A stretch of 63,272 nucleotides of DNA, filler included, from a bacterium (GTDB taxonomy: Bacteria > UBA9089 > CG2-30-40-21 > SBAY01): the NCBI GenBank assembly GCA_040757115.1. It is 3 parts of 3 records of this genome, joined end to end, with 100 filler letters (N's around TTAATTAATTAA, not from the genome) between each part and the next. Parts side by side here need not be neighbours in the genome. Positions count along the whole stretch, not along the records: positions 43,676 to 63,272 come from JBFLYA010000055.1; 2 more parts are not named here. The stretch is one strand, 5' to 3'. This document shows positions 43,910-62,933 of the stretch, piece by piece. Position numbers and translations under genes: made by a program. Position 1 is the stretch's first letter; the number at the start of each line of letters is the position of its first letter. Below the pieces are notes generated by a model that was not told where the DNA came from, did no database searches, and was given only the letters and a program-made list of their open reading frames with translations.

Positions 43910-44317
43910 CTATTTTCCAATATTATCAAATGCCTTTCGTTTAACTTCTGGTTTAGGTCCAAAATTAAGTAATAATCCCACTTCTATCTCTGTTGCTTTA
44001 AGATAATTTAAAAGTTGTGCCTCGTGTTCGTCTGCAAGGCACTTTGTAGATTTAAGTTCTACAATCACTTTGTTATTGACCAAAATATCTGCTAAATAAT
44101 CCCCAACAACCTTCCCCTCATAAATAACCTTGATAGGAGATTGAGGTATTGCCGGAATATCTAACTTTGTCAATTCAATCACCATCGCATTCTCATACAC
44201 CTTCTCCAGAAAACCATATCCCAGTGTATTATAAACTTTGTAGAATGCCTTTATGATCTTCTCGGTTAATTCTTTATGTTTAAAATCTTGAAAATCTGCG
44301 TTCATCTGCGTCCCCAT
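43910..44317 (-). CDS. GxxExxY protein (PD-(D/E)xK-like), flanked by inverted repeats
   Basis: LGYGFLEKVYE, ADILV...VELK, AQLLNYL..LLNFG; IR GGACGCAGAT (43820) / ATCTGCGTCC (to 44313). Confidence 0.92.
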   Translation of the reverse strand: MGTQMNADFQDFKHKELTEKIIKAFYKVYNTLGYGFLEKVYENAMVIELTKLDIPAIPQSPIKVIYEGKVVGDYLADILVNNKVIVELKSTKCLADEHEAQLLNYLKATEIEVGLLLNFGPKPEVKRKAFDNIGK

Positions 44318-44373: not shown

Positions 44374-45219
44374 TTATACCTCCCGTCTTGCCATAAAATT
44401 GGCAATGGTATTTAAAATCATAATGATAATGAATAAGACAATTCCTGTGGCAAACAGTGCCTGGCGGTGTTCTCCAATAGCAAAACTCATTTCTAAGGCA
44501 ATATTTGCTGTCAGGGTGCGAGCCGGGTCAAGTATTGAATCAGGAATGATAACTGAATTTCCAGCAATCATAATGACCGCCATTGTCTCTCCCACTGCCC
44601 GTCCTACACCGAGGATAATACCTGCAATAATGCCCGAGCGTGCCGCCGGGAGGACGACCATTTTTATTGTTTGCCATCGCGTTGCCCCTAAGGCTAATGA
44701 CCCCTCCCGATATAAATGTGGAACAGCCTTAAGTGAATCAATTGAAATACTGGTAATCGTCGGTAAAATCATTATCCCAAGAATGATTGAGGCGGCTAAA
44801 ATACAAGGTCCCGGCCCACCCAGATAATTACGAATCACTGGAAATAATATTACTATCCCCATAAATCCATAAACTACGGATGGGATGCCCGCTAAAAGTT
44901 CAATTATTGGTTTAAGAATTTTACTTGTCTTCTGTGTGGAAAATTCAGCTAAGTAAATAGCACAGGCAAGACTTAACGGCAGACTAAATATAAGAGCACC
45001 AACAGTTATCCATAATGAGCCCATAATCATTGGGAATATCTCAAATCTTCCTTCTCTGGGTGACCAATTAGTCCCACAAATAAAATCCTTTATTCCTGCT
45101 TTTAGAATAATCGGCAATCCTTCTTTTAAGATAAATAAAGCGATTAAAATAAGGATAGCGATGGTTGAAAAGGCGGTAATTAACAAGCCAAACTGAATAA
45201 ATCGTTCACGATACCTCAA
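44374..45219 (-). CDS. pstC: Phosphate ABC transporter permease
   Basis: IELLAGIPSVVYG, EGSLALGATRWQTI, RAVGETMAV. Confidence 0.92.
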   Translation of the reverse strand: MRYRERFIQFGLLITAFSTIAILILIALFILKEGLPIILKAGIKDFICGTNWSPREGRFEIFPMIMGSLWITVGALIFSLPLSLACAIYLAEFSTQKTSKILKPIIELLAGIPSVVYGFMGIVILFPVIRNYLGGPGPCILAASIILGIMILPTITSISIDSLKAVPHLYREGSLALGATRWQTIKMVVLPAARSGIIAGIILGVGRAVGETMAVIMIAGNSVIIPDSILDPARTLTANIALEMSFAIGEHRQALFATGIVLFIIIMILNTIANFMARREV

Positions 45220-45272
45220 ATTTATTACTCCTTGTCCCTTGAACCTACGGTCTTACCTTGGGTAAATAATTA

Positions 45273-45430
45273 GTAAGCGTTCAGCCATCAGGTATCAGCA
45301 ATCAGTTAACATCCAGGAAATCAGGATAGTAACAAATCCTACAATTTTGCGTAAAGGGTGTCTATGTGTCTGGTAGTCTATGTAACCCAGACACTTAGAC
45401 ACCCAGATACCAGACTACCTGAACGGTTAC
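45273..45430. mobile_element. IS66-like miniature element
   Basis: GTAAGCGTTCAG...CTGAACGGTTAC; 8-bp duplication AATAATTA on both sides. Confidence 0.85.
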
Positions 45431-45442
45431 AATAATTACCAT

Positions 45443-46231
45443 TTATTTAACCGGAATCAATCCGTAGTCTGAGATTAGTTGTTGCCCTTGTTCAGAAAGG
45501 ATAAATTCTATAAATTCTCCTATTTTTCCTTCCGCTGGTCCTTTCGTAAGCAAGAAAATCGGTCGAATGATTTTATACCTGCCTTTTTTGATATTTTGTA
45601 AGGTGGGCGACACTCCATCTATTTTTAAGGATTTTACCCTGTCAGTAACAAGTCCATAAGTGAGGTAACTAATAGAATTTGGGTCATTTTCAACCATTGT
45701 TCTAACAGCACCACTTGAATCCTGAATAAGAGCACCAGCACTAACTTTGGTTCCGGCTAACAGTAATTCTTCAAAGGAGACCCGTGTTCCAGAACCTTCT
45801 TCTCTTGAAATGACCGTAATTGGTTTATCTTCCCCACCTACTTCTTTCCACTTTTTTACCTGACCGCTAAATATTTGTTGGATTTGGAGTGGCGTTAAAT
45901 TCGCAATTTTATTATTTGGATGAACAATCAACACCACGGCATCTTTTGCCACAACAACAGTATTCAATCCTTGCGCCTCTTTTGGCAATGTGACCATATC
46001 TGCCATACCAATTTGAGCCACACCGCTTTGTGCCGATTGAATTCCTACCGCAGAACCTCCTCCTTGAACATTAATTCGAACATCATTCTTCCCTGCCATA
46101 TATTCTTCCGCGAGTTTCTCTGCAAATGGTTGAAAAGCCGTCGAACCAGCTATATTTATCGTTTCAATATTAGATTTTGCACATCCAATTGCCAGACAAG
46201 AAAATAACATACAAAAAATTAACCGATACAT
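45443..46231 (-). CDS. pstS: Phosphate ABC transporter substrate-binding lipoprotein
   Basis: Lipobox-like LAIGC, AGST, QGGGSAVG, REEGSGTR. Confidence 0.92.
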   Translation of the reverse strand: MYRLIFCMLFSCLAIGCAKSNIETINIAGSTAFQPFAEKLAEEYMAGKNDVRINVQGGGSAVGIQSAQSGVAQIGMADMVTLPKEAQGLNTVVVAKDAVVLIVHPNNKIANLTPLQIQQIFSGQVKKWKEVGGEDKPITVISREEGSGTRVSFEELLLAGTKVSAGALIQDSSGAVRTMVENDPNSISYLTYGLVTDRVKSLKIDGVSPTLQNIKKGRYKIIRPIFLLTKGPAEGKIGEFIEFILSEQGQQLISDYGLIPVK

Positions 46232-46315
46232 TCAAAAACCTCCTTCTTTTGTTGGTAATTGGTAACTGGTAAAATGGTAATTAGCATAATCTACCCTCAA
46301 TACTCTTTTCCTTTC

Positions 46316-46939
46316 TTACTCACTACTCCTATGGTGAAGATGACGTTTAATAAAGATATAGAGTAAGATAATGATACATATACCTATTAAGACATCAAAT
46401 TTATGGAATATAGGTGATAATGTTGAGTGCCATTTTGCTCCAAAAATCATCCCAAAGTATGTCAGAGCAATATTCCAGGGCACAGAACCAAGAGTGGTAT
46501 AAAGACAGAATTTAAGGAAATTCATTTTGGCTATGCCAGCAGGCAATGAGATAAATGTTCTGATAACAGGCATATTGCGGGTAAAAAATATGGTTAAGTC
46601 ACCGTATTTGTTAAACCATCGCTCAGCTACATCCATATCATGCCGGGTCATCAGGATATATTTACCATATTTCAAGATAAAAGGTCTTCCTCCTATTAAT
46701 CCAACCCAATAAGCGATGATTGACCCAACCAGGTTACCTAATGTGCCAGCAACCACTACCCAAAATATCTGAAATCTACCTTCTGATATGAGATATCCTG
46801 AAAAAGGCATAATAATTTCAGAGGGTAGGGGAATACACGCACTTTCAATAGCCATAGCTATTCCTATTCCCCAATATCCTGCGGCATTAATAATTGCGAC
46901 AACAATTGATGCTAAAAATTCAAGTATTTTTGTTACCAT
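46316..46939 (-). CDS. DedA family membrane protein
   Basis: ESACIPLPSE, R.MPVIRTFISLPAG; true start at MVTK. Confidence 0.9.
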   Translation of the reverse strand: MVTKILEFLASIVVAIINAAGYWGIGIAMAIESACIPLPSEIIMPFSGYLISEGRFQIFWVVVAGTLGNLVGSIIAYWVGLIGGRPFILKYGKYILMTRHDMDVAERWFNKYGDLTIFFTRNMPVIRTFISLPAGIAKMNFLKFCLYTTLGSVPWNIALTYFGMIFGAKWHSTLSPIFHKFDVLIGICIIILLYIFIKRHLHHRSSE

Positions 46940-46942
46940 ATC

Positions 46943-47057
46943 TTCTCCTGAAAATAAGGAAGTAGAAAGTAGAGAGTAGAAAGTAGAAAGTAAAGAAAAC
47001 ATCATTCCTCACGCCTATCTCCTTACCTCCCACCTTCTATCTCCTACCACTATTTTT
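46943..47057 (-). repeat. Dispersed repeat; inverted copy at ~50090-50202
   Basis: GGAGATAGAAGGTGGGAGGTAAG...(TCTACTY)n...TTTTCAGGAGAA. Confidence 0.8.
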
Positions 47058-47361
47058 CGACCTGTGAAATAGGTCGACATGGGAAAACAAAATCGTAAGC
47101 GTTCAGGTCATTGCGAGATATCTAATAATAATGTAAAATGGGCAATGTAAAATGAAAAATGTAAAATGAGAGGATGGATGAAATGAAAGGTGATGATATT
47201 ACTGAAAGACTAATTGACTTTACAGAATTGACTTTTAAATTTTTAATTGCTCATTTTACATTTTAGAGTTATTTTTTTAAGTAGCTGAACGCTTACTCCT
47301 TTATTCTCTTATCCCCCTTCTTATATTAACCACGATCAAAATATTCCTATTTCACAGGTCG
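47058..47361. mobile_element. CGACCTGTG-ended element with a nested IS66-like element (47095-47296)
   Basis: TIR CGACCTGTGAAATAGG/CCTATTTCACAGGTCG; 8-bp duplication CTATTTTT; inner GTAAGCGTTCAG...CTGAACGCTTAC. Confidence 0.8.
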
Positions 47362-47444
47362 CTATTTTTTATCCTCCTTTGTGTCCACCCTGTGGACATG
47401 GCCGTTTCTCCTTTCTTACATCTGAAAGATGCAAGAGTTCACAT

Positions 47445-48152
47445 CTAAATTATTCTCAATATTGCGGGATTTCTTTGAGTGGAGAGACTTTTTAGGTCAT
47501 TTATAATATTGACATATTCATCGACACCGCCCTGGACACCTTTTTCTCGTCTTTCTTCCTCAGTTATTTTAATTCTCCTGCCAATCACAGGTCCAGTGCC
47601 GGTATTTTCTCCAAACTGGTCTGTCAGTTCTACAACAGCTAAGCTTTCATCAAATATGGTCATATGTTGAAGTTTTCGACATAGAACGGGTTGCCATTCT
47701 TTAAATTCATTTCTTAAGATAACTATAATTTCGGCACGATTGTTTTCAAAGATTAATTCCCGACGATGGCTTCGGATAATCTCTTTGACGCGGTCTTTAC
47801 CAAATGTATCTTTGGACATAACAAAAAAGTGAAATATCTTTATCTGTCTATCTCTGCGTTGTAATAAGGCTTTATTGATGGCTAACATTTTTTGCGGAAA
47901 TCCTTCAGTTCGCCATCGCTCAACCCAAAAATCCACGCAGGCTAATTCTTTTTGTACCTCTTCTGATTCCTTTAAAAGTAAATTATACAATTCTCGTCTA
48001 TCATCTATAAAACACCAACCTTTCTCGGACATATCTTTGGCTCGATGCAACCATTTATTTAATCCATCTTCGATAATAGTTACTTCACGAATAGCAACTT
48101 TGCGTAAATATGGGTCATCAATACCATCTGCAATCTTTCTTAAATCTTCCAT
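47445..48152 (-). CDS. Hypothetical protein, divergent from the ubiquitin-like operon
   Basis: 235-aa ORF with AGGAGG SD and its own promoter; no family recognised. Confidence 0.7.
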   Translation of the reverse strand: MEDLRKIADGIDDPYLRKVAIREVTIIEDGLNKWLHRAKDMSEKGWCFIDDRRELYNLLLKESEEVQKELACVDFWVERWRTEGFPQKMLAINKALLQRRDRQIKIFHFFVMSKDTFGKDRVKEIIRSHRRELIFENNRAEIIVILRNEFKEWQPVLCRKLQHMTIFDESLAVVELTDQFGENTGTGPVIGRRIKITEEERREKGVQGGVDEYVNIINDLKSLSTQRNPAILRII

Positions 48153-48204
48153 ATTGAAAATCCTCCTTATATTTGGTAATTGGTTAGGATAATTTAACGA
48201 AATT

Positions 48205-48287
48205 ATTTTAATGAATTAATAGCGATTTGTCAAGTAAAAAATTAATTTAAAAAATCAGTTGACGAATTAAATTAAATAAGTTATAAT
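48205..48287. promoter_or_regulatory. Back-to-back divergent sigma70 promoters
   Basis: Minus: TTGACA(48233-48228)-17-TAAAAT; plus: TTGACG(48259)-17-TATAAT(48282). Confidence 0.65.
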
Positions 48288-48299
48288 TAATGTGCATTA

Positions 48300-49475
48300 A
48301 TGGAAGAAAAAATCGTCATTAGTGATTTAGATAAAGATAGATATTCACGATTGGGGCTTATTCCCTGGTGGAATCAGGAAAAGCTGAAAAACACATTGGT
48401 TATGGTTGTTGGCGTTGGTGCATTAGGAAATGAGGTTGTAAAAAACTTAGCCCTTTTAGGCGTAGGGAAAATAATTATTGTTGATTTTGACCAGATAGTC
48501 AATGCTGATTTAACCCGCTCTGTTCTTTATCGAAAAGAAGATGATGGTAAAAAAAAGGTTGAAATAGCGGCAGAAAGAATTCAAGAAATTAATCCTGAGG
48601 TTAAAATACAACCTTTAGCCGGAAATATCCTCTGGGATGTAGGATTAGGGATATTTAGACAAGTAGATATAGTTATTGGTTGTGTGGATAACCGTGAGGC
48701 AAGATTAGCTATTAACCAGGCTTGCTGGAGAACAAATACCCCATGGATTGATGGAGGAATAGATGTCTTAAATGGAGTAGTAAGTATCTTTTGCCCACCA
48801 GAAAACGCATGCTATGAATGCACCTTGACAGATTTAGATTATAATATTCTCGGCGTCAGATACTCCTGCCCATTACTTAGATATGATGATTTATTAGAAG
48901 GAAAGACACCTACAACCTCAACTATTGCCTCGATTATTGCTGGAATTCAAGTTCAGGAGGCAATAAAATTAATCCATTGTCTTGAAGTCCCAAAAGGAAA
49001 AGGAATAGTTTTTAATGGATTAACCTATGAATGCTATCTTATTGAATATTCTAAAAAAAATGACTGCTTAAGTCATGAATATTATGCAGAAATTGTTGAA
49101 TTGAATAAAGGAGTAGAAAATACTACATTTAGAGAATTACTTGAATTAGCCCGGGAATCACTGGGTAAAGAGGTTATATTAGAATTAGACCGAGATATAG
49201 TCACTAAATTACACTGTAGTAAATGCCAGGAAGATACGAATATTTTTAAAGTATTAGGTAAGGTAACCATAGAAGACGGCAAATGTCCAAAATGTGAAGG
49301 GATAAGAAATGTAAGTATGACCAATATAATTTCTCTTGAGGAGAAATTTATAGATAAAAATTTAGCAGAGGTAGGAATTCCCCCATTCCACATCATTGGA
49401 GCAAGAAATGGTAAAAAGACTAAATATTTCGAACTTACTCAAGATAGGAAAAAGACTTTAGGGGAGGTAGTGTAG
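48300..49475 (+). CDS. E1 ubiquitin-activating-like enzyme (ThiF/UBA family)
   Basis: DRYSR, GVGALG, DFD.I..ADLTRSVLY, CVDNREAR, CYEC, candidate catalytic YSC, C-terminal extension with CSKC...CPKC. Confidence 0.92.
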   Translation: MEEKIVISDLDKDRYSRLGLIPWWNQEKLKNTLVMVVGVGALGNEVVKNLALLGVGKIIIVDFDQIVNADLTRSVLYRKEDDGKKKVEIAAERIQEINPEVKIQPLAGNILWDVGLGIFRQVDIVIGCVDNREARLAINQACWRTNTPWIDGGIDVLNGVVSIFCPPENACYECTLTDLDYNILGVRYSCPLLRYDDLLEGKTPTTSTIASIIAGIQVQEAIKLIHCLEVPKGKGIVFNGLTYECYLIEYSKKNDCLSHEYYAEIVELNKGVENTTFRELLELARESLGKEVILELDRDIVTKLHCSKCQEDTNIFKVLGKVTIEDGKCPKCEGIRNVSMTNIISLEEKFIDKNLAEVGIPPFHIIGARNGKKTKYFELTQDRKKTLGEVV

Positions 49476-49688
49476 ATGTTTAATTTATTTGGGGCTAATA
49501 AGCCAACGCCTGTGTTATTAGTTTATTCGCAAACACCAATTGAGTGTGCGTATTGTCATACACCAGTAAAAACAGAAAGTATAGTTGTCAGATGTCCTAT
49601 GTGTAACACCATTCACCATCCACAATGTTGGAAAGAAGGAAAAGGGTGTAGTGTTTTTGGTTGTAAAAATGCGCCGAAGAAAAAATAA
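49476..49688 (+). CDS. Stand-alone prokaryotic RING finger protein (Prok-RING-like, candidate E3)
   Basis: C-x2-C-x12-C-x2-C-x4-H-x2-C(W)-x6-C-x4-C; GGAGG SD, abuts the E1 stop. Confidence 0.8.
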   Translation: MFNLFGANKPTPVLLVYSQTPIECAYCHTPVKTESIVVRCPMCNTIHHPQCWKEGKGCSVFGCKNAPKKK

Positions 49689-49705
49689 TTTGGAGGAAAA
49701 AAATA

Positions 49706-49975
49706 ATGAGAATTGTTAATATTGAAATAGAAGATGTGACAGGGGCTAAAAGGCAACGAGCGGACATCCCGGATGATGTCCCATTAAAAAGGGTTATTTC
49801 CGCTTTAGTTTCAAAAATGAAGTTGCCAACAGTTAGCCCAAGTGGTTCTCCGTTGAATTATCAATTACATCATAAAGCATCAGGTAGGTCTTTAAGTGAA
49901 AGTGATACATTAGCCAGTGCAGGAATACGAGAAGGAGCTGTTTTGAAAATACATCCCGTTGTTGTCGCTGGATAA
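49706..49975 (+). CDS. Ubiquitin-like beta-grasp protein (YukD/EsaB-like) ending in Gly
   Basis: Ubl pattern ...L.ESDTLASAGIREGAVLKI; C-terminus VVVAG-stop; GGAGG SD. Confidence 0.85.
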   Translation: MRIVNIEIEDVTGAKRQRADIPDDVPLKRVISALVSKMKLPTVSPSGSPLNYQLHHKASGRSLSESDTLASAGIREGAVLKIHPVVVAG

Positions 49976-50204
49976 TTAGATGAGGAAGGTTAAGGTTAGG
50001 GAAGAGAAAGTCTCCTCTTCTTCCCTTCCTTAACCTAAATCTTTTATGGAGAAACGGATATGCTAACCCGCTGGCATAAAGGACAATGAAAATAGTAGGT
50101 AGGAGATAGAAGGTGGGAGGTAAGGAGATAGGCGTGAGGAGTGATGTTTTCTTTACTTTCTACTTTCTACTCTCTACTCTCTACTTCCTATTTTCAGGAG
50201 AAAG

Positions 50205-50714
50205 ATGGAATATCAATCCCCAAGAAATTTACGATTAGAAGAAGATTATAAAAAGATGCAAGAATTGGTGAAAAAAAGCCCATTTATTACCTTTGAAGTC
50301 TCTGGTGATCCACCTAACAGGTATATTATTAACTATACCTGTCGAGGATTAAGGTTAGATGAGATAAGTAAACAGGTAATTATTGCTAATTTTCATCAAG
50401 TAGAAATTTATCTACCAACCGCTTATCCCAGAATAAGACCAAATTTAGAGTGGCTGACACCAATATATCATCCCAATATTGGAACAAATAATCAAGTCTG
50501 TCTTGGTGGTTGGGCACCTTCAGAAAGTCTGGATAGACTTTGTGTCCGATTAGGGGAGATGATTCAATATAAGAATTTTGATGAATATGACCCAATAAAC
50601 GCCAGTGCCGCGGCCTGGGCTTTGAAAAATCACGATAAATTACCTATTGACCCACGACCATTAGAGGCGGATGAACCACAATTAAAAGGAGCATACGAAA
50701 TTAAATTATCATAA
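50205..50714 (+). CDS. E2 ubiquitin-conjugating (UBC-fold) enzyme
   Basis: RLEEDYKKM helix, YP..RP, TPIYHPNI..NNQVCL (HPN plus catalytic Cys), WAPS, PINASAA. Confidence 0.92.
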   Translation: MEYQSPRNLRLEEDYKKMQELVKKSPFITFEVSGDPPNRYIINYTCRGLRLDEISKQVIIANFHQVEIYLPTAYPRIRPNLEWLTPIYHPNIGTNNQVCLGGWAPSESLDRLCVRLGEMIQYKNFDEYDPINASAAAWALKNHDKLPIDPRPLEADEPQLKGAYEIKLS

Positions 50715-50776
50715 TCAGTGAACAGTGCTGTACCTGTTTAGCGTGGTCAGAGAGCACAAATGAATGGTACTGACTT

Positions 50777-51140
50777 AGTGCGAAACCACTTCAAACACAA
50801 CAAATTGTGTAATACAAAATCAAAAATTAAATATTAAAATGCAAAATGACATATCAAATATCAAAAAATCTTGACTTCGTGTTTAATTTATTGCCTTACA
50901 AGTATACAGGTTTGCAAAAACTTTCTTGAAAGAATTCAAGGGGTCAAGGGATCCAGGGGTCGAGTGAACACCTTATTTTTCACCTTCCTTGAATCCTTGA
51001 CCCCTCGAATCCTTGATCCCTTTTTAGAGCAAAATATTTGCAAACTCAATTTATTTGGGTATATTTTTGCATTTTGCTTTGTCCTTTTGATTTTTACATT
51101 TTGATATTTGCATTAAACTCCTTGTGGAATATTTCGCACC
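50777..51140. mobile_element. Nested palindromic repeat element between E2 and JAB
   Basis: GTGCGAAA/TTTCGCAC outer ends, (CAAAAT)n/(ATTTTG)n layer, inner octamer TCAAGGGG/CCCCTCGA mirror repeats. Confidence 0.65.
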
Positions 51141-51226
51141 AGTATCCTATTGTTTAACAAAGGTTACTTCTCAAATCAACGCAATTTGGAACACTCTAAA
51201 CATGTACCTGAATTAGGAGAGTTTGA

Positions 51227-51883
51227 ATGAATACCTTTTCAAATGATGAGGAAATATTAAAAATTAGACTAACAAACGAAGAGATAGTTAAACCTATCCC
51301 TGAAAAAATGCCACTACATAATCCAAATTATGCCATTAGATTATGTGTGGATAAACCAGAATATGCCTTGAAGATATTTGTTCCTATAGAGATAATGAAG
51401 CAGATACTTGATTACTCTAAAAAAGATACTACTCGAGAATTAGGTGGGGTCTTAATTGGTGATTATTGCCTTGATAATAAGATTAAATCTATAAAAATAT
51501 CGGATTTTATTGAGGCAAGAAATACTCAAGGTGACAATAGTCATATTAGATTTAACCATGAGACATGGAATGCGATTGAACAGGAGAAAAAAACAAAGAA
51601 AATTCCTGAAGGAAAACAGATGGTCGGTTGGTTTCATACACACCCTGGCTGGGGAATATTCCTTTCAGAGGATGATTTATTCATTCATCAAAATTTCTTT
51701 AATCTTCCCTGGCAGGTAGCAATGGTCGTTGACCCGCTTCAAAAAGAACAAGGATTTTTTATCTGGGAAAATGATAAAATTATAAAATCAAGGGATTTTT
51801 ATCTTTATACTATAAAAGAAAGGGAGAGTGAACTAATATCTTTTGTCCATTCACTTTCTCAAAGTAGAAAACTTGACCGATAG
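51227..51883 (+). CDS. JAB/MPN+ (JAMM) metalloisopeptidase
   Basis: ELGGVLIG...VGWFHTHPGWGIFLSEDD (E...HxH-x7-S-x2-D), VVDP. Confidence 0.92.
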   Translation: MNTFSNDEEILKIRLTNEEIVKPIPEKMPLHNPNYAIRLCVDKPEYALKIFVPIEIMKQILDYSKKDTTRELGGVLIGDYCLDNKIKSIKISDFIEARNTQGDNSHIRFNHETWNAIEQEKKTKKIPEGKQMVGWFHTHPGWGIFLSEDDLFIHQNFFNLPWQVAMVVDPLQKEQGFFIWENDKIIKSRDFYLYTIKERESELISFVHSLSQSRKLDR

Positions 51884-51938
51884 AAAATAAGTTGATAAGG
51901 CAGAAACTTGTTTTCTTGTTTCTTTAAAAGGAGGAATT

Positions 51939-52655
51939 ATGCCAAAACTTGGAGTAAATGTTGACCATGTGGCAACAGTCAGACAGGCACGAAAAGTTAA
52001 AGAACCGAACCCAATTATTGCCGCAATGATTGCTGAACTCGCTGGTGCGGATTCTATTGTCGTCCATTTAAGAGAAGATAGAAGGCATATTCAGGAACGC
52101 GATGTGCGAGTTTTACGCGAGATAATTACGACTAAGCTAAACTTAGAAATGGCCTCTACAGACGCTATGGTAAAATTTGCCCTATCTTTAAAACCTGACC
52201 AGGCAACTTTAGTTCCGGAGCGCCGTGAAGAATTAACCACCGAAGGTGGTTTAAATGTTATTGAAAATAAAGAGAATTTAGCCTCAGCCGTTAATTTATT
52301 ACAAGATGCGGGAATTGTTGTCAGTTTATTTGTTGACCCGGATATTTCACAGATTAAAACCTCCTCAAAGATAAATGTTACTGCGATAGAATTACATACT
52401 GGAAACTATGCTAATGCTACCAGTCCTCAACAGGCTCAAGAAGAATTAGAAAAATTAGAGGATGCCGCTTCTTTTGCCATAAAACAAGGTTTAGTCGTCA
52501 ATGCTGGTCATGGGTTGAATTATCAAAATGTTATACCAATCGCTTCCATTCACGGAATAAATGAACTGAACATAGGACATTCAATCATTGCCCGGGCGAT
52601 TTTAGTTGGGATGGACGAGGCAGTAAGAGAGATGTTGGAACTTGTAAGGAGATAG
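51939..52655 (+). CDS. pdxJ: Pyridoxine 5'-phosphate synthase
   Basis: [48 protein letters not shown]. Confidence 0.97.
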
Positions 52656-52664
52656 AGACAAAAA

Positions 52665-53366
52665 ATGTTAAAACCAGAAGATTTCTTTGATTTGTCTCAT
52701 TTTGGACATAAAGCAATATTTGAAGATGTAGAGTATGTTTGGGAAGTATTGAAGAAAATCGAAACTTACATTAAGCAGGTGATTAAACCGCAGATTTCAG
52801 GCACAATTATGGATGGTGCGTTTTTAATCGGCGATAATATCCAGATTGGAAAAGGAACAGTAGTCGAACCAGGTGCTTTTATTGCTGAACCTACCATTAT
52901 TGGCAAAAATACACAGATTAGACAGGGGGCTTATGTCCGCGGGAGTGTTATTGTTGGAGATGAATGTGTCGTTGGTCATACGACCGAAATGAAGAATGCG
53001 ATTATGTTAAATAAGGCTAAAGCAGGTCATTTTGCCTATATTGGCGATTCTATTTTAGGAAATGAGGTTAATTTAGGGGCAGGAACTAAACTGGCTAACT
53101 TTAAATTTGAAAATCTCTCATCCACCGTAGATGTAAGGTGTAACGATAAAATTTATAAAACAGGATTGAGAAAATTCGGTGCTATCTTAGGAGATAAAAC
53201 CGAAACAGGTTGTAATTCAGTGATGACACCAGGTACTCTTTTGGGACCTAAATCCATTGTCTATCCTAATACTACCGTTAAAGGTTATTATCCTGCTCAT
53301 TCCATTATAAAATTAAGACAAAATTTAGAAGTAATTATTCAGCCACTGATTAGCACGGATAAATAA
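52665..53366 (+). CDS. Hexapeptide-repeat (LbH) acyltransferase, GlmU C-terminal-like
   Basis: Hexapeptide repeats, HFAYIGDSILG..VNLGAGT, TGLRKFGA. Confidence 0.85.
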   Translation: MLKPEDFFDLSHFGHKAIFEDVEYVWEVLKKIETYIKQVIKPQISGTIMDGAFLIGDNIQIGKGTVVEPGAFIAEPTIIGKNTQIRQGAYVRGSVIVGDECVVGHTTEMKNAIMLNKAKAGHFAYIGDSILGNEVNLGAGTKLANFKFENLSSTVDVRCNDKIYKTGLRKFGAILGDKTETGCNSVMTPGTLLGPKSIVYPNTTVKGYYPAHSIIKLRQNLEVIIQPLISTDK

Positions 53367-53402
53367 ATAGATAGCAGAAGATAGAGGTCAGAAGACAAAA
53401 GT

Positions 53403-53583
53403 TAGTGTGGTGTTGAGTAAGTTTTGCACGGCGTATCATCAGATTTCATAACCTGCAAACGGATAACTGGTAACTGGTTAAATAGTTTCGTCCTGAGATC
53501 AGCCAAACGGTATTTAATTACCAGTTACCAATCACCAGTTACCAGAATCAAATTCCGTGCGTTATTTGTTCAACACGACATTA
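53403..53583. mobile_element. Miniature element with heptamer core
   Basis: TAGTGTGGTGTTGA / TCAACACGACATTA inverted ends; inner GCACGG/CCGTGC and TGGTAAC/GTTACCA. Confidence 0.65.
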
Positions 53584-53632
53584 GAAGATAGATGAGAACG
53601 GAGATTCGCAAAATTAGAGGGAGGTAAAGATA

Positions 53633-54058
53633 ATGGGAAAAATTATGGTAAGGATGAGAATAAGAAACCTTTTTGATGAAGTAAGGGCAAAGAGTGGACT
53701 AATTAAAGAGGAGGAAGTCAGGGATATTACGGTTAATAATGCCCTGGTTGATACAGGGGCAACAATGCTTTCTCTACCTATAACCCTTATTGAGGAATTG
53801 GGGCTTGAACAATCTGGAACAAGAGAGGTTAGAACAGCAAATGGTATAGTTACAAGAAGGGTCTTTAGTGAAGTAAGAGCTGAAATTCAAGGAAGAGAAG
53901 GAGGATTTCAGGTTTTAGAGCTGCCAGTAGATGTTGTGCCTCTGGTTGGTCAGATTGTCCTTGAGCAGCTTGACTTATACCCTGACCCCCAGAATCAAAG
54001 ACTTACTGGAAGACCAGATGCCCCTGACCATATGGTGGTGGAATGCTATCTATCTTGA
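53633..54058 (+). CDS. Clan AA (retropepsin-like) aspartic protease
   Basis: ALVDTGAT, RTANG, LVGQIVLEQLDL. Confidence 0.88.
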   Translation: MGKIMVRMRIRNLFDEVRAKSGLIKEEEVRDITVNNALVDTGATMLSLPITLIEELGLEQSGTREVRTANGIVTRRVFSEVRAEIQGREGGFQVLELPVDVVPLVGQIVLEQLDLYPDPQNQRLTGRPDAPDHMVVECYLS

Positions 54059-54124
54059 GGATTTCTTCCTGTTTAGAGCAAAATATTTGCAAACTCAATT
54101 TATTTGGGTATAGTTACAAAGGGG

Positions 54125-54364
54125 GTAACCGTTCAGGATATAGCCACAGAGTCACAGAGAACACAGAGGGAATATATAACCACGAATGAACACAAATACA
54201 AAAAGATTTGTAGTGCGAGGCGTTAGATTCGCTTCTGGCAAGCCAAAAGGCGAACTTAAAGGTTCGCACTACATTTATGGGATGTCAGAGGTTAATTCGT
54301 ATCCATTTGTGACTAATTTCCTTAATTCTCTGTGAACTCTGTGTCTCTGTGGCTGAACGCTTAC
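54125..54364. mobile_element. IS66-like miniature element
   Basis: GTAACCGTTCAG...CTGAACGCTTAC; 8-bp duplication CAAAGGGG at 54117-54124 and 54365-54372. Confidence 0.85.
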
Positions 54365-54382
54365 CAAAGGGGATTATTTGTT

Positions 54383-55726
54383 ATGTCAGGATTATTTGGT
54401 ACCGACGGGATACGGGGCGTGGCTAATCAGTATCCTATGACTGGACAATTTGCCGTCCAACTGGGATTTGCCGCCACCAGGAAACTTTCACAAAGACAAA
54501 AAGCAAAAATAGTTGTGGGAAAAGACACACGCGTTTCTTCAGATATGCTTGAGGCAGGTTTAATTGCTGGAATTACATCCGCAGGCGGCGATGTCCTGAA
54601 AGTAGGGATTCTTCCTACCCCAGCAATTGCCTATCTAACAAAATCATTATCTGCCTGTGCGGGCATTGTTATCTCCGCCTCTCATAACCCATTTCAGGAT
54701 AATGGAATTAAATTCTTTGGCCCAGATGGACTGAAACTTAAAGATGAAATAGAAAACGAAATAGAAAATGCCTTATCAGAAGATTTCAACTATCCACCCG
54801 CAGAAAATATTGGTCGAGTTATCGAAATAAAAGATGCAAATATCCAATACTTAAATTTTGTAAAAGAAATGGCAGGTGATTCATTATCTCTTAAGGGAAT
54901 GAAAGTGGTTATTGATTGTGCCAATGGAGCGACAAGTTTTATCGCACCAACCTTATTTCAAGAAATAAAGGCAGAGGTTATTTCCTTGAACTATCAGCCT
55001 GATGGGAAAAATATTAATTTTGATTGCGGCTCACTTCATCCAGAAAAAGCCAGCCAAATGGTAAAAAATCAAAATGCCTCAATCGGTCTTTGTTTTGATG
55101 GGGATGGAGATAGGGTAATTGCCATAGATGAAGAAGGGAAAATCGTGGATGGCGATTTTATAATGGCTATCTGCGCCAAACACCTTAAAGAAAATGAGAT
55201 GTTAAATAACAACTTAGTTGTAACCACCGTAATGAGTAATATCGGATTTTATCTTGCTTTAAAAAGATTAAATATCGATACAATTACAACTAAAGTTGGC
55301 GATAGATATGTTGTTGAACAGATGTTAGAAAAAAAGGCTGTTTTAGGTGGTGAACAATCTGGCCATATTATATTTTTAAACCATTTTCCTACTGGAGATG
55401 GAATGGTTACTGCCTTGCAACTTCTCACCGTTATGCAAAAGACTTCCTTGCCTCTATCTAAATTAACCCAAATAATGAAAAAATATCCACAGGTATTGAT
55501 AAATATTCGGGTTAAGGACAAAAAAACCGACCTTGAGTCTATTTCGGAAGTCCAATCTGCCATTAAATCAGGACAAGAATCTTTAAAAGAAGAAGGCAGA
55601 ATATTAGTGCGATATTCCGGAACAGAATATTTAGCCCGAGTGATGGTAGAGGGTCCTACCGAAGATGAAATCAATAAAATAGCCAACAATATCGCCAATA
55701 TCATAAAAGAAAAAATAGGGGTGTAA
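54383..55726 (+). CDS. glmM: Phosphoglucosamine mutase
   Basis: FGTDGIRG, ISASHNP, FDGDGDR, GGEQSGH, RYSGTE; upstream GTG extension is repeat-derived. Confidence 0.95.
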   Translation: MSGLFGTDGIRGVANQYPMTGQFAVQLGFAATRKLSQRQKAKIVVGKDTRVSSDMLEAGLIAGITSAGGDVLKVGILPTPAIAYLTKSLSACAGIVISASHNPFQDNGIKFFGPDGLKLKDEIENEIENALSEDFNYPPAENIGRVIEIKDANIQYLNFVKEMAGDSLSLKGMKVVIDCANGATSFIAPTLFQEIKAEVISLNYQPDGKNINFDCGSLHPEKASQMVKNQNASIGLCFDGDGDRVIAIDEEGKIVDGDFIMAICAKHLKENEMLNNNLVVTTVMSNIGFYLALKRLNIDTITTKVGDRYVVEQMLEKKAVLGGEQSGHIIFLNHFPTGDGMVTALQLLTVMQKTSLPLSKLTQIMKKYPQVLINIRVKDKKTDLESISEVQSAIKSGQESLKEEGRILVRYSGTEYLARVMVEGPTEDEINKIANNIANIIKEKIGV

Positions 55727-56284: not shown

Positions 56285-56292
56285 TTTTTTTA

Positions 56293-56674: not shown

Positions 56675-57154
56675 ATGAAGAAAGAAAGTTTGTATCTTGA
56701 TACCTCAGTTCCCAGTGCTTATTATGATGAGAGGGTAATGTGGCGACTTGCATATACAAGAGAGTGGTGGAGGGATGAACTTTCTAAATATGATATTTTC
56801 ATCTCAGAGATAGTGATTGCTGAAATAAGAGGCACAGAGGAATCAAGAAGGAGAACTGAATTATTAGAGTTAGTAAAAGAATTTGGAGAACTTAAGTTAT
56901 CTCCTGAAATAGAAGAGATAGCCAAGGGATATGTTAATCAAAAGGTTATCCCTCAAACTCATTTTCCAGATGCTTTGCATATAGCCCTTGCCTCATTCCA
57001 TAAGATTGATTTTTTGATTACATGGAATTGTGAACATCTCGCAGAGGCTCATAGACGAAGGAAGGTTAGGTTATTCAACACCTCTGCAGGTCTGTTTGTC
57101 CCTGAAATAGTAACTCCAATGGAACTTGTAGAGGGAGGTGAAGAAGATGTATAA
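56675..57154 (+). CDS. PIN-domain (VapC-like) toxin (cassette)
   Basis: YLDTSV, ISEIV..E, DALHIA.A, LITWNCEHLA. Confidence 0.88.
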   Translation: MKKESLYLDTSVPSAYYDERVMWRLAYTREWWRDELSKYDIFISEIVIAEIRGTEESRRRTELLELVKEFGELKLSPEIEEIAKGYVNQKVIPQTHFPDALHIALASFHKIDFLITWNCEHLAEAHRRRKVRLFNTSAGLFVPEIVTPMELVEGGEEDV

Positions 57155-57700: not shown

Positions 57701-58522
57701 ATGGACAAAATACATCCAAATAATAAATTAAATGATTTACCAGGGGATAAATGGATTTTTTTAACCCAGTCTGTTATTAAAACAAATTATCCCAAAAATC
57801 ACGGATTTTTACTTCGTCAGCAACACGGTGCAAATAAACCACCAGAACTTATGAAAGATTTGATTCTATTTTTTACTAAAAAAGACTCAACGGTTTTTGA
57901 TCCTTTTGCAGGGGTTGGAGGAACTTTATTAGGTGCATCTTTATGTGGGAGAAAAGCTTTAGGAGTTGAGATAAACCCAAAATGGATTTCAATATATAAA
58001 GAAGTATGCAAAGATGAAAATATTAAGCAACAAGAGATTATTGAGGGTGATTGTCTTGAGATAATGGATGCTCTTATACATGCGAAAAAAAAGTTTAGTC
58101 TGATTCTTACAGATCCTCCCTACAATATTAATCTTGAAAGAACAATGTGCCGTGGGGACTATCCTAATAGAAATAGACATACAGATTTTAAAGAGTTTTC
58201 TAAATATGCCCAAGATTTCAGCAATTGTAAAACATATGAACACTATTTAGATAAGATGGCACTTTTTATTGAAAGAAGTTTTAAGTTGCTATTCAAAAAT
58301 AAATATTTGATAATACTGACTAAAAATGCTTACCAAAATGGCAAATATATATTAGTAAACCAAGATATAGCAAAAATAGCACAATCTCGCGATTTTACTT
58401 TGAAAGGTGAAATCATCTGGTGTCAAAATGGTGTTCGTTTACGTCCCTATGGTTATCCGTTCAGCTATGTACCAAATATAATTCATCACAACATACTTAT
58501 CTTTAAAAAAGAGGTGTTATAA
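57701..58522 (+). CDS. N6A/N4C DNA methyltransferase
   Basis: HGANKP, FDPFAGVGG, GVEIN, LTDPPY. Confidence 0.88.
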   Translation: MDKIHPNNKLNDLPGDKWIFLTQSVIKTNYPKNHGFLLRQQHGANKPPELMKDLILFFTKKDSTVFDPFAGVGGTLLGASLCGRKALGVEINPKWISIYKEVCKDENIKQQEIIEGDCLEIMDALIHAKKKFSLILTDPPYNINLERTMCRGDYPNRNRHTDFKEFSKYAQDFSNCKTYEHYLDKMALFIERSFKLLFKNKYLIILTKNAYQNGKYILVNQDIAKIAQSRDFTLKGEIIWCQNGVRLRPYGYPFSYVPNIIHHNILIFKKEVL

Positions 58523-61101
58523 TGGATCTACCCCGTAATCCTTTCGATATCATAAGAACTGAAGATTTTAATACCAATTATAAAATCATAGCTCAATATT
58601 TTAGTGACCCACATGCTACTTATTATTCAAATCTGACAAGAAGAGGAAATGTAATTCTTGTTGGTACACGCGGGTCTGGTAAGACGATGCTATTAAAATC
58701 ATTATATCTCCCAGTGCAAATTGAAATCATGAAGAAAGAAGGTAAAGACCCATGCACTCATTCATTAGATTTTATTGGGATATTAGTTAATTGTGAGAGG
58801 TATGAGTTTAAGATATTCCGAGAAAATATTTACAGTTATCAGATGGAGCATAATAACGAAGAAAAAATAAGGTACTTCTGGAAACAATGTATGGGACATT
58901 ACTTTGCTCTTTTTATAATTGAGGAAATGCTAAACACAGTTATTAATTATGGAGCAGATATTGGATTAAACTTGCAAGACCCATTATATGAAATATTATC
59001 AAACCAAATCTGTGAGATATGTCGTATAGAACTATCTGCCTCTTTTGATTCTTTAGGTGATATATTAAAAAGGAAACGATTAGAGTTTTCACAACTACTT
59101 TCAATGTCTATACTTAATTTAGATTATTCCATTGCGAACAACCGCTTCGATTTATCTGCGGTTATTGAAGTTGGCAATACCTTAAAGAAAATCCCAAGAT
59201 TCAAAAATGCAAGATTTTATATCCTGTTAGATGACTTTTTCTATCCAAATTTAGCTGATGAGCAACAAAAAATTCTTCTGGAATTAATTCGGGTAAGGAA
59301 TGAACCTCTTGCTTTCAAAATAGCGACACTCCCTGGAGGTATGGTATTTACAGATGCCAGTGGATTTGAATTAATGGGGCGAGGTGATGATTTTACTATT
59401 GAGTCCATAGAATATTCTGAATTAGGAGAAAGAAGTGATTATTATAAACTCATTAAAGACATAGTTAATAATCGTGTGAAAGACTATGAATTAGTAGCTG
59501 ATGATCTATTTCAAAAAAGCAATGATACTATAAAAGATTTTTTGTCAAAACTAAAAGGGGAAGTAGGAAAAGGTCATATTAGACCTGAATATGCAGGATT
59601 TGATAGTTTAGTCCATATGAGTTCCGGTGTTGTTAGAACATTCTTAGTATTAGCTAAAAAAATCTTGGATAAACAGCTACAGCAAAAAAATGCAGAGCGA
59701 TTAGATAGAACTATTTTACCTATCCCAGTTGATATTCAGTCAGAAGTGGTATATTCAGAATCTTCACTATTTTTAGATGCAATTGCGAGTAGAGAAAAAG
59801 GATCACTTATATCAAAGATTGTTTATTTTGTTGGTAATGAATCAAGGCAAAAACTCTTAAATAATCAAGTCGCTAATGAGTATATACAATTGCAAATAAA
59901 AAATTATGTTGATATTAAACCAGAAGTACAAGAGATACTAACTAAAGCAGTAACCAATAATGTTTTCCATACATACCAGTTATCCCATAGAACAACAAGA
60001 AGAGGAGCAGTATCTATAGAGTCCCTTATCCTTAACAGACTATTAACTCCTGCATTAAGAATCCCTTATCATGATCGGTGGCGGATGGATATAGATGCAC
60101 AACAAATTAATAAGATACTTGGTGATATTGCTCCGATTGACATTTCTTACCACAAACCGCAACCACAAAAGAGTTTTATTAGTCAATATTGTCCAGTAAT
60201 ATCTGGTGACTGTGATAGAATAGACCCAAATCTTAAAGAAGATGGTTGCTTTTATGCCTCACCAATAAGAAACGATTGGACATCTTTCGCAAAAGATTTA
60301 TTTAAGAAGCAATTTTCTAAATTTGAAGTTGCAATTGAACAGCCACCAAAGGGTGATTTAACCTGCAAAATCTGTGAGATGATACATAATGCCCATTTTG
60401 GTATATACGAATTAACAGATCTTAATGAAAATGTAGTCTTTGAACTTGCCCTTGCATTATCTCGAGAAAAACATTGTTTTTTTGTTGCTAACACTGAATA
60501 TCCGGTAGAGCAAATTGAGGCTATGCTGGGCAAAGAGTATATACCTTATCAGGTAGTAGATAGTGAAATTGAAAAACTGTGTCAAGAAAAAATTCTTCCT
60601 ATTGTAAATTCTGGAGATGAACCATGGAATACAAAGATAATAAAAGGAATAAATACTGTTCCTGCAAACAAAACTGTATTACTGGCTATGCCAAAAGAAT
60701 CTCTTTATTATGAGAAAACATTAACCAATGGAGTCAAAGACATTTTAGAGAAAGAATTAGGTTTGGAAGTAATCATTCCTTCTCAATATTCTATCGGCAA
60801 TTGGTTCTCGAATTTAGTTAATGATGTAAAAAGAACAAAATATTGTTTCATTGATACAACTTTACCGAGTCAATATAATAACTTTAATGGAAGATTTTCG
60901 CCTAAAGAACTTGATTATTTACAAAGAGTATTCATATTCGGACTTAGCGTTGGTTTTAGAAAAATAATTTTACATGGATATAATACTGCATATAGTAAAA
61001 AGATATTTACAGATATGCAAGGACATTGCCATTTTGAATATTCTGATTCCAAACTGTTTGAAGAGATTAGAAAAAGGGTACCAGAGGTGTTCCATGAATA
61101 A
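58522..61101 (+). CDS. Large P-loop ATPase (ORC/CDC6-like) with C-terminal TIR/NDT-like modules
   Basis: GTRGSGKT Walker A, FYILLDD Walker B; C-terminal KICEMIHNAHFGIYELTDLNENVVFELALA and a second degenerate copy. Confidence 0.7.
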   Translation: MDLPRNPFDIIRTEDFNTNYKIIAQYFSDPHATYYSNLTRRGNVILVGTRGSGKTMLLKSLYLPVQIEIMKKEGKDPCTHSLDFIGILVNCERYEFKIFRENIYSYQMEHNNEEKIRYFWKQCMGHYFALFIIEEMLNTVINYGADIGLNLQDPLYEILSNQICEICRIELSASFDSLGDILKRKRLEFSQLLSMSILNLDYSIANNRFDLSAVIEVGNTLKKIPRFKNARFYILLDDFFYPNLADEQQKILLELIRVRNEPLAFKIATLPGGMVFTDASGFELMGRGDDFTIESIEYSELGERSDYYKLIKDIVNNRVKDYELVADDLFQKSNDTIKDFLSKLKGEVGKGHIRPEYAGFDSLVHMSSGVVRTFLVLAKKILDKQLQQKNAERLDRTILPIPVDIQSEVVYSESSLFLDAIASREKGSLISKIVYFVGNESRQKLLNNQVANEYIQLQIKNYVDIKPEVQEILTKAVTNNVFHTYQLSHRTTRRGAVSIESLILNRLLTPALRIPYHDRWRMDIDAQQINKILGDIAPIDISYHKPQPQKSFISQYCPVISGDCDRIDPNLKEDGCFYASPIRNDWTSFAKDLFKKQFSKFEVAIEQPPKGDLTCKICEMIHNAHFGIYELTDLNENVVFELALALSREKHCFFVANTEYPVEQIEAMLGKEYIPYQVVDSEIEKLCQEKILPIVNSGDEPWNTKIIKGINTVPANKTVLLAMPKESLYYEKTLTNGVKDILEKELGLEVIIPSQYSIGNWFSNLVNDVKRTKYCFIDTTLPSQYNNFNGRFSPKELDYLQRVFIFGLSVGFRKIILHGYNTAYSKKIFTDMQGHCHFEYSDSKLFEEIRKRVPEVFHE

Positions 61102-62419: not shown

Positions 62420-62453
62420 GCAATGCCGTGCCTAAAGAAATTTGGAGGTAAAG

Positions 62454-62933
62454 ATGGCATACAAAGTTTTTATAAGTCACAGCACTCGAGATCAGCGATT
62501 AGTAATTACACTTGCAAATATCCTTTCAAAATTTGGAGTGGATGTATCAGTTGCAGAGTGGTATCTATCTCCAGGACAACAACTTGATAAGAAAATATTT
62601 GAAAAGATAGAGAATTCTGATTGTGTGATTGTTTTATTAACACAAAATGGTATCCGGTCAAATTGGGTACAACAAGAAATAGGGTATGCATTGAAGTCTG
62701 GTAAATCTCTTATTCCTCTTGTAGAGAAAGGGATAAATCAAAAAGAGTTAGCATCGTTGCAGGGTAAAGAGTATATTGAATTTGATTCTTATCAACCTCA
62801 ACAATCGCTGATTAAAACTTCTACTTTTGTGAAGTCACTGAAGTTAAAAAAGGAGCAACAAGAGAAAGCATTACTCATTACAGGGGGTATTCTTGCTTTC
62901 CTGTTATTACTTTCTGGAGGAGAAAAAGAATGA
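62454..62933 (+). CDS. TIR-domain protein with C-terminal hydrophobic helix (cassette)
   Basis: KVFISHS..D, SDCVIVLLT...SNWVQQEIGYA (catalytic-type Glu); ALLITGGILAFLLLL tail. Confidence 0.88.
   Translation: MAYKVFISHSTRDQRLVITLANILSKFGVDVSVAEWYLSPGQQLDKKIFEKIENSDCVIVLLTQNGIRSNWVQQEIGYALKSGKSLIPLVEKGINQKELASLQGKEYIEFDSYQPQQSLIKTSTFVKSLKLKKEQQEKALLITGGILAFLLLLSGGEKE

Follow-up and report, generated by a model that had tools for sequence, protein, structure and literature searches.

We describe a five-gene cassette for a predicted bacterial ubiquitin-like protein (Ubl) conjugation system, located at positions 48300-51883 of a 63,272-nucleotide stretch of DNA (hereafter the window) from assembly GCA_040757115.1, whose genome is placed in the GTDB lineage Bacteria; UBA9089; CG2-30-40-21; SBAY01. 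The cassette encodes, in this order, a putative E1 activating enzyme, a stand-alone RING finger, a Ubl, an E2 conjugating enzyme, and a JAB metallopeptidase, and we consider it, with a probability of about 0.7, to be a working set for Ubl conjugation and deconjugation that belongs to the Prok-RING "tri-ligase" class and is passed on vertically as part of the core gene set of one bacterial order. Comparison of genomes indicates that the grouping of these five genes is more than chance, since their order recurs in every same-order relative with a long enough contig and the ratios of nonsynonymous to synonymous substitution rates (dN/dS) are low. The tag of the system is a YukD-type protein that already ends in Ala-Gly in this genome, the peptidase is closest to Rpn11, and the RING, a bare finger of 70 residues, is the component whose assignment is the least firm.

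The cassette and its five gene products

The window is not a single molecule but consists of three contigs with N spacers between them (21788-21887 and 43576-43675), and therefore the operon has no physical neighbour before position 43676. The cassette lies on the third contig only (C414; positions 43676-63272, JBFLYA010000055.1), in an assembly of 4.3 Mb and 462 contigs with a completeness of 99.87%. A first-pass annotation, made from the DNA alone, had proposed five co-oriented genes for a complete ubiquitination-like operon here and had suggested family searches as a check. Five open reading frames (ORFs), all on the plus strand, do occupy the interval; each matched the family expected of it (ThiF, Prok-RING_1, YukD, UQ_con, and Prok-JAB), and all five proteins exceed the curated Pfam cut-offs. 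The genes, with their Pfam scores, are as follows.

48300..49475, plus strand: E1, 391 aa (ThiF, 175.2 bits, E = 1.6e-51)
49476..49688, plus strand: stand-alone RING and candidate E3, 70 aa (Prok-RING_1, PF14446, 31.4 bits, the cut-off being 29.1)
49706..49975, plus strand: Ubl of YukD-type beta-grasp fold, 89 aa (YukD, 49.6 bits, E = 6.7e-13)
50205..50714, plus strand: UBC-type E2, 169 aa (UQ_con, 38.3 bits, E = 1.3e-9)
51227..51883, plus strand: JAB, an Rpn11-type JAMM metallopeptidase, 218 aa (JAB, 46.7 bits, E = 3.2e-12; Prok-JAB, E = 4.4e-7)

The ATG of the RING gene abuts the E1 stop codon, and inspection of the sequence revealed a GGAGG-like ribosome-binding site 5' of each of RING, Ubl, E2, and JAB. 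The motifs that had been claimed for E1, RING, E2, and JAB are present and kept in relatives (alignments of 12-17 sequences where counted). Of the full E1-E2-E3 cycle that had been proposed, the parts list is thus in place by homology, while the cycle itself is proposed from that homology.

Predicted active sites and relationships of E1, E2, and JAB

Thirteen E1 sequences from five phyla share as invariant residues the Gly-rich ATP loop (G38, G40, G43), R73, D130, C171-x2-C174, C190 of a "YSC" motif, C256-x2-H259, and a C-terminal four-Cys cluster (C306-x2-C309...C329-x2-C332). The protein is laid out as one adenylation domain (about residues 9-260), a flexible crossover loop with Cys190 as candidate catalytic residue, and a C-terminal domain (about 265-382), and was modelled with a pLDDT of 86.3 and a pTM of 0.87, values for residues 192-204 falling below 50 as in a disordered crossover loop around Cys190. 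Profile scores were highest for UBA7 (7e-44) and UBA1 (2e-42), followed by SAE2 and UBA3 (about 1e-37), and were lower for MoeB (4e-34) and ThiF (2.5e-32). Structural alignments of the model with SAE2 (299 residues aligned), UBA3 (310), and UBA1 (298) run to residue 382, through the C-terminal region of those proteins, and those with MoeB and ThiF end near residue 260. The modelled C-terminal domain may thus be a ubiquitin-fold-domain (UFD)-like, E2-recruiting module.

The first-pass annotation had recognised a canonical UBC-type E2 and a JAMM isopeptidase, and both identifications hold. In the E2, P90, N91, and the catalytic Cys C99 are invariant among relatives and H89 is nearly so; the protein is in register with yeast Ubc13, with equal HPN-to-Cys spacing and a loop-7 motif W103-A-P105-S, and in profile searches it scores best with Ubc13 and UbcH5 (about 1e-12). 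The JAMM signature of the JAB protein (E71, H137-x-H139, S147, D150) is invariant in 12 sequences, and its best profile matches are yeast Rpn11 (1.6e-19) and CsRpn11 of Caldiarchaeum (6fjv; 2.9e-19), with CSN5 far behind (4e-10).

A YukD-type tag that is ready-made in this genome

The Ubl had been described as an 89-residue beta-grasp protein ending VVAG, and this is borne out by the YukD match and by the end of the ORF, where Ala88-Gly89 is followed directly by TAA. On profile evidence it is a YukD-type protein and not a ubiquitin homologue: a search of PDB sequences at E <= 1 had neither CsUb nor ubiquitin among the eight matches listed, none of these matches was significant, and the best ubiquitin-like one was the RAD23 UBL at 0.13. 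The wider family comprises 1024 representative clusters at E <= 1e-3, and 127 of the 131 representatives that reach the end of the profile carry "AG" there. Only one lysine, Lys15, is conserved family-wide (present in 86%).

Across the order the Ubl is 87-96% identical. Six of its 11 Ubls, including the present one, end at the Gly, and five (loci L018, L019, L022, L034, and L040), otherwise near-identical, carry unrelated tails of 3-15 residues after Ala-Gly; tails are also present in 111 of the 131 wider-family Ubls. Given such tails in sister genomes, the peptidase family must also process precursors. Hence the proposal that JAB is a true deconjugase, acting on a tag that needs no maturation, fits this genome with its tailless Ubl but not the five tailed cases. 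At locus L018 the tail runs into a downstream palindromic repeat, as if a repeat insertion had displaced the stop codon.

A small stand-alone candidate RING finger

In 17 RING sequences the ligands C24, C27, C40, C43, H47, C51, and C58, together with Trp52, are invariant and C63 is nearly so, in agreement with the C4HC3 finger with a conserved Trp that had been reported. Tyr, Val, or Ile stands between the first and second Cys (Pirellulaceae have CPIC or CPVC), and Lys64 directly follows the last Cys. By manual mapping, we take Tyr26, Trp52, and Lys64 to occupy the E2-contact and "linchpin" positions of the finger. By our mapping, the inter-Cys residue, Trp52, and Lys64 also match I30, W58, and R69 of a small archaeal RING protein, whose mutation impaired a reconstituted ubiquitination cascade according to the available part of PMC5654768. 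Homologues of this small stand-alone type are rare, since 5.8 billion proteins yielded only seven clusters of them, all with lengths of 70-77 aa, and the RING profile returned nothing significant among PDB chain sequences. The structure model of the finger has a pLDDT of 84.3; its fold is considered with the alternatives below.

Distribution, descent, and selection

Relatives of the same order carry record titles of Candidatus Desantisbacteria. Some records placed in the same family or order are instead titled "Nitrospira sp.", "Nitrospirota bacterium", "Marinifilum sp.", or "bacterium" (including loci L026, L028, and L033), and the discordant titles of these three loci are probably binning or labelling errors.

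The E2 was found in every one of the 11 remaining genomes of the order and, counting all genomes searched, in 14 of 41. All 12 genomes of the order have a single match to the RING profile, against none in 13 genomes elsewhere in the phylum, and 12 of 25 genomes of the phylum have a match to the Ubl profile. Wherever contigs suffice, the gene order is E1-RING-Ubl-E2-JAB-pdxJ, with four loci showing all five genes and six more consistent with this order up to the contig end; the synteny and co-conservation that had been suggested as a check on the operon are therefore found. The order is monophyletic in the trees of E1 (100/99) and E2 (98/98), and both show an identical split into two families. 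Judged from gene content, position, and tree topology, the cassette is core to the order, fixed in position, and vertically inherited throughout it.

Over all five cassette genes dN/dS is 0.02-0.23, which corresponds to purifying selection. Against two same-family genomes the values are 0.09-0.13 for E1, 0.16-0.20 for RING, 0.07-0.10 for E2, 0.11-0.15 for JAB, and 0.02-0.03 for the Ubl, the most constrained gene of the cassette, and the neighbouring pdxJ has 0.07-0.08; taken overall, the ranges are 0.16-0.23 for RING and 0.07-0.17 for E2. By this measure constraint on the Ubl exceeds that on a vitamin-B6 enzyme, reminiscent of ubiquitin in eukaryotes.

Beyond the order, sets with these five functions were found in Pirellulaceae, in one Anaerolineae genome, and in Syntrophomonadaceae/Gelria, with different gene orders. 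In these distant loci the RING is part of a longer protein (at least 206 and up to 308 aa), of which one type also has zinc ribbons and an RDD membrane domain. Overall, Prok-RING domains accompany the cassette in 10 of 22 distant loci (Planctomycetota, Anaerolineae, and Bacillota), and four cyanobacterial cassette loci showed no RING with the RING profile used.

Proposed mechanism and role

If the homologies carry over to function, E1 would adenylate Gly89 of the tailless 89-residue Ubl, which would pass to a thioester on Cys190 of the flexible crossover loop. The UFD-like domain of E1 would then recruit the E2, and the Ubl would be transferred to E2 Cys99. The RING would bind the E2, with Tyr26 and Trp52 as candidate contacts against E2 loops 4 and 7, and with Lys64 as linchpin it would promote discharge of the Ubl onto target lysines, possibly including Lys15 of the Ubl itself. 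The Rpn11-type JAB would remove the tag again and, in sister genomes, would also trim the precursor tails.

Within this reading of the cassette, we slightly favour a role in regulating the cell's own proteins or controlling their quality over one as a mobile anti-phage module, because the cassette is core and position-fixed and its tag evolves slowly. The first-pass annotation had likewise suggested a regulatory rather than defensive system; its core status and vertical descent within the order, unlike the accessory second Ubl locus of this genome (see below), speak for that suggestion, while additions to the cassette in the sister family and a defence-like gene cluster downstream speak against it. 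A stronger version, which we offer only tentatively and hold to be less likely than not, is that the whole order keeps a minimal soluble, eukaryote-style E1-E2-RING-Ubl-Rpn11 cycle as housekeeping, with a tag as conserved as eukaryotic ubiquitin, for true ubiquitin-like signalling or quality control on its own proteins and not for phage defence. On this version the cassette, which in this family stands between glmS and pdxJ/glmM, might even act on enzymes of cell-envelope precursors.

Lineage-wide, fixed conservation together with a slowly evolving tag makes this our best case for non-defensive, RING-dependent tagging in bacteria. A role on the cell's own proteins would bear on the origin of the eukaryotic E1-E2-RING logic, and if the system should be defensive after all, it would be the first such system with a RING E3.

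Alternative explanations

Several observations weigh against our reading, and most of them belong to one of three alternatives. Two are more general. First, the 70-residue RING has no evident substrate-binding part. Second, the proteasome family PF00227 has a single match in the genome, which in our inference fits HslV, and the system has no evident degradation partner.

The alternative that survives best, although we rate it as unlikely, is an anti-phage or conflict system like Bil, in which the Ubl would be put on an invader protein or on an effector upon infection. The characterised bacterial Ubl systems, Type II CBASS as well as Bil, serve as phage defences according to the available portions of PMC10557695 and PMC11601596, and Prok-RING tri-ligase sets occur in predicted FtsH-ternary conflict systems (PMC7159879, available portion). 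In PADLOC, E1 and JAB match CBASS-type E1-E2 and JAB models, and E1 also matches BilD (E = 4.7e-7 over about 110 residues); the matches to E1 cover the shared adenylation domain only, the JAB matches are to generic "JAB" models only, and no PADLOC model matches E2, Ubl, or RING.

Genomic context adds to the case for defence. A defence-like cluster (PIN, DNA methylase, ORC/Cdc6-like ATPase, and TIR) begins about 4.8 kb downstream of JAB. In the sister family (f2), moreover, all four loci examined (L019, L020, L021, and L022) hold two further genes between JAB and pdxJ, namely a second JAB, about 30-34% identical to the cassette JAB, and a STAND NTPase of 718-733 aa with NB-ARC/AAA_16/nSTAND matches, C-terminal TPR repeats, and 215 N-terminal residues without a family. 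The STAND gene is found in five of six genomes of that family but, at E <= 1e-10, in none of six genomes of the family to which the present genome belongs (f1). Against defence stand also the single-copy, position-fixed presence of the cassette in 12 of 12 genomes of the order with congruent trees, where defence systems are usually patchy, and a Ubl more constrained than a housekeeping enzyme, unlike what an arms race would lead one to expect.

Less probable again is that the small zinc finger is not an E3 at all, with E1, E2, and JAB working alone as in Bil and the finger being a C1- or PHD-like binuclear one with another role, such as that of a target, adaptor, or regulator. The RING is the weakest link of the cassette, its modelled fold being tied between RING-H2 and C1 domains. 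A Foldseek search with the model found nothing at E <= 1e-3, its best match being a C1 domain at 5.6e-3. In a VIA fold search the top four matches were E2-binding RING-H2 domains (ZNRF1, Z 6.2; Ark2C, 6.0; RNF165, 5.9; RNF12, 5.9), but C1 domains followed at Z 5.5-5.0, within 1 Z of them, and all of these values are "middling". The Prok-RING_1 score is only 2.3 bits over the Pfam cut-off, weak Pfam matches to C1_2 and PHD_4 occur as well, and the cyanobacterial loci lack a match to the RING profile. What tells against a non-E3 finger, in addition to the top VIA matches, is linkage, as the gene stands between E1 and Ubl with its start on the E1 stop and in one copy in every genome of the order; the company that Prok-RING domains keep with the same cassette in 10 of the 22 distant loci; and the agreement, by manual mapping, of the inter-Cys Tyr/Val/Ile, Trp52, and Lys64 with the archaeal residues. 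The proposal of a stand-alone RING E3 therefore keeps its family match, its contact-type residues, and its linkage, and is weakened by the tie with C1 domains.

A pathway like those of MoeB-MoaD or ThiF-ThiS, with the Ubl as a sulfur carrier or in cofactor synthesis and only thiocarboxylated, is very improbable: the E1 adenylation domain does superpose best on MoeB (Z 30.3) and ThiF (Z 29.7), matches the NCBIfam ThiF/MoeB models at E-values of 1e-39 to 1e-32, and has a crossover-loop Cys that alone does not separate E1 from ThiF, which has a loop Cys likewise, but the NCBIfam scores are far under their cut-offs (TIGR02356 for ThiF, 135 vs 275; TIGR02355 for MoeB, 111 vs 377; NF004281, 126.5 vs 266), the scanned neighbours include no rhodanese domain and no thiamine or molybdopterin genes (as the first-pass annotation had said of sulfur transfer), such a pathway has no need for a co-conserved HPN-Cys E2, RING, and Rpn11-type peptidase, and the Ubl is YukD-type rather than ThiS or MoaD.

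Promoter, spacers, and repeats

The five genes had been described as standing behind one promoter, and a candidate was found immediately upstream. The candidate promoter, the hairpin, and the two repeats of the cassette spacers are the following.

48259..48287, plus strand: sigma-70-like promoter match, TTGACG-17-TATAAT, 11 of 12 positions matched
49987..50036, no strand assigned: hairpin followed by a short U-rich stretch, 3' of the Ubl stop (118-nt spacer, -36.1 kcal/mol, z -2.7)
50098..50194, no strand assigned: 97-nt dispersed repeat unit in the Ubl-E2 spacer, with an inverted copy at 46952-47048 that is 96% complementary; not part of the system
50900..51110, no strand assigned: composite dispersed repeat of 211 nt that fills the E2-JAB gap and is matched 42 times across the genome; not part of the system

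Sigma-70-like matches are common in this AT-rich region (31 observed vs 21.9 +/- 5.0 in shuffles). The E1 ATG lies 12 nt past the -10 hexamer of the candidate, so a transcript from it would carry a very short leader. The Ubl-E2 gap of 229 nt and the E2-JAB gap of 512 nt both hold dispersed repeats and hairpins; in relatives both gaps are short, the E2-JAB gap measuring some tens of bases. Because repeat elements occupy these two intergenic gaps, the match is at most a candidate for a single promoter of all five genes.

Attenuation or stabilisation of the mRNA is a possible function of the hairpin that follows the Ubl. Long hairpins occur in the Ubl-E2 spacer of all five genomes tested, in four of them directly past the stop, with unrelated sequences. 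As a control, 14 of 28 spacers in the window contain a 100-nt stretch at <= -30 kcal/mol, so strong hairpins are ordinary in this genome, and for this reason we read the Ubl-E2 hairpins as ordinary repeat insertion. A conserved regulatory element was rejected on the same grounds, the sequences being unrelated among genomes and half of the spacers equally structured. The 97-nt inverted pair (46952-47048 and 50098-50194), which flanks the block of the 235-aa ORF (47445-48152), E1, RING, and Ubl, was considered as the sign of an invertible or mobile segment and rejected too, given 53 matches to the unit in the genome and relatives without the unit at these places.

The genome is rich in dispersed palindromic repeat families of MITE/REP-like kind. 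A separate 61-nt unit stands in three tandem copies at 55919-56101 (two identical, one at 61%), each with a short GC-rich hairpin. No Rfam family reached threshold in 40000-63272.

Neighbourhood and a second Ubl locus

Close to the cassette lie genes for a VTT-domain (DedA-type) protein, a hexapeptide transferase, and an aspartyl protease, as well as pdxJ and an ORF at 54332-55726, which we take to be glmM from the label of the first-pass annotation only. Two genomes of the same family have glmS immediately upstream of E1. The description of the operon as sitting among housekeeping genes therefore fits its immediate neighbours and does not extend to the defence-like cluster 4.8 kb downstream. 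Other features of the contig are listed here.

43910..44317: PD-(D/E)XK nuclease gene
46316..47005: VTT-domain (DedA-type) ORF, the first ~18 codons of the longest ORF lying inside the 97-nt repeat copy (46952-47048)
56675..57154: PIN-domain protein
57701..58522: N6/N4 DNA methylase
58522..61101: ORC/Cdc6-like ATPase, 859 aa
within the 56675-62933 cluster: 368-aa protein of unassigned family
62442..62933: TIR-domain (ThsB-like) protein

The true start of the VTT-domain ORF is probably the internal Met in "...GEDMVTKILE". A divergent ORF of 235 aa at 47445-48152 was rejected as a member of the system: it has no Pfam family and stands beside the cassette only in a same-genus genome, and its matches in the protein atlas are unnamed clusters only (0.93).

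The genome encodes a second, divergent Ubl system on another contig (C222, locus L025, 6317-12218, minus strand). It comprises an E1 of 432 aa (ThiF, 4.8e-46), a 371-aa protein without assignment, a JAB protein of 630 aa, an E2 of 286 aa with a long N-terminal extension and a weak UQ_con match, and a 223-aa protein, described as membrane-anchored, with hydrophobic segments, a Cys-rich finger, and no Pfam family. This locus looks accessory, because its E2 has a full-length match only in this genome among 12 genomes of the order, and it looks like the tri-ligase sets of conflict systems.

Comparison with known systems

Prok-RING "tri-ligase" Ubl operons were reportedly predicted by computation in 2011 by Burroughs, Iyer, and Aravind in Mol Biosyst, to whom citing papers, reviews and Corbett-laboratory work among them, credit them. 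To our knowledge, the bacterial Ubl conjugation systems tested to date (Type II CBASS, Bil, and Bub) all lack a RING E3. In the literature we found no experiment on a bacterial Prok-RING operon, the original 2011 description being known to us through citing papers only, and no work joining Desantisbacteria with ubiquitin. In their available portions, PMC10557695 and PMC4197634 describe bacterial E1/E2/RING/Ubl/DUB operons as uncharacterised, and PMC4197634 calls them "sporadically dispersed" and "often missing in close relatives". The first-pass annotation was correct to place the cassette beside these predicted operons and the Caldiarchaeum system. The cassette shares with the Prok-RING operons a YukD-type Ubl ending Ala-Gly, a ThiF-type E1, a UBC-type E2, a Prok-RING, and a JAB, all gene-linked. 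It differs in that its RING is a bare 70-aa finger with no membrane or other domain, whereas elsewhere the RING proteins have at least 206 and up to 308 aa, in its gene order, and in being core to a whole order rather than sporadic.

The operon of Caldiarchaeum subterraneum (Ub, E1, E2, a small RING, and Rpn11) has been reconstituted in vitro, and its cascade needs the RING, as stated in the available parts of PMC5654768 and PMC6043591. Both systems have the five-part minimal set, an Rpn11-type JAMM peptidase, and an E2 with HPN-Cys and a loop-7 Pro-Ser, which compares with archaeal PS103/104 (PMC5654768, available part); the candidate RING here is likewise small and stand-alone, and the E1 has a putative C-terminal domain of Ubl-fold type. 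The likeness that had been claimed extends to this five-part list but not to the tag, which here is YukD-type and ends in Ala-Gly, not Gly-Gly, and is no ubiquitin homologue; the host, too, is bacterial. Further, JAB here is co-oriented with the other genes and the tag is tailless, while the available text on the archaeal system has Rpn11 transcribed oppositely and a precursor with nine additional residues.

Bil (BilABCD), like the present cassette, has separate Ubl, E2, JAB, and E1 genes, and it carries out genuine protein conjugation in bacteria (PMC10557695 and PMC11601596, available portions). Unlike the cassette, it has no RING, and its E1 has tandem inactive and active adenylation domains versus the single domain here (PMC11601596, available portion). 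The only Bil-named PADLOC match was BilD on the E1, with none for Ubl, E2, or JAB, and Bil is patchy and defensive where the cassette is core. Type II CBASS Cap2/Cap3 shares the E1-type adenylation chemistry, the E2-type cysteine, and a JAB peptidase, but Cap2, as described in the accessible part of the literature, is an E2-E1 fusion that conjugates the CD-NTase, whereas E1 and E2 are separate here and accompanied by a RING and a dedicated Ubl; the scanned neighbours of the cassette showed neither a CD-NTase nor an effector gene. The FtsH-ternary tri-ligase sets (Kaur et al., eLife 2020, PMC7159879), in the available portion of their description, also have a JAB, an E1, and a prokaryotic RING-type E3, but with a Ubl-E2 fusion, EAD1 adaptors, caspase-like effectors, and AAA+ partners, none of which the cassette has.

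The class to which the cassette is assigned was thus already predicted in 2011, and the RING-bearing kind has been a computer prediction since. What is particular here is a bare, soluble RING of 70 aa, vertical conservation across an order, and a ready-made tag. With five small proteins, no predicted membrane parts, an unprocessed tag, and a RING that consists of the finger only, the cassette is probably the member of the class that is easiest to test.

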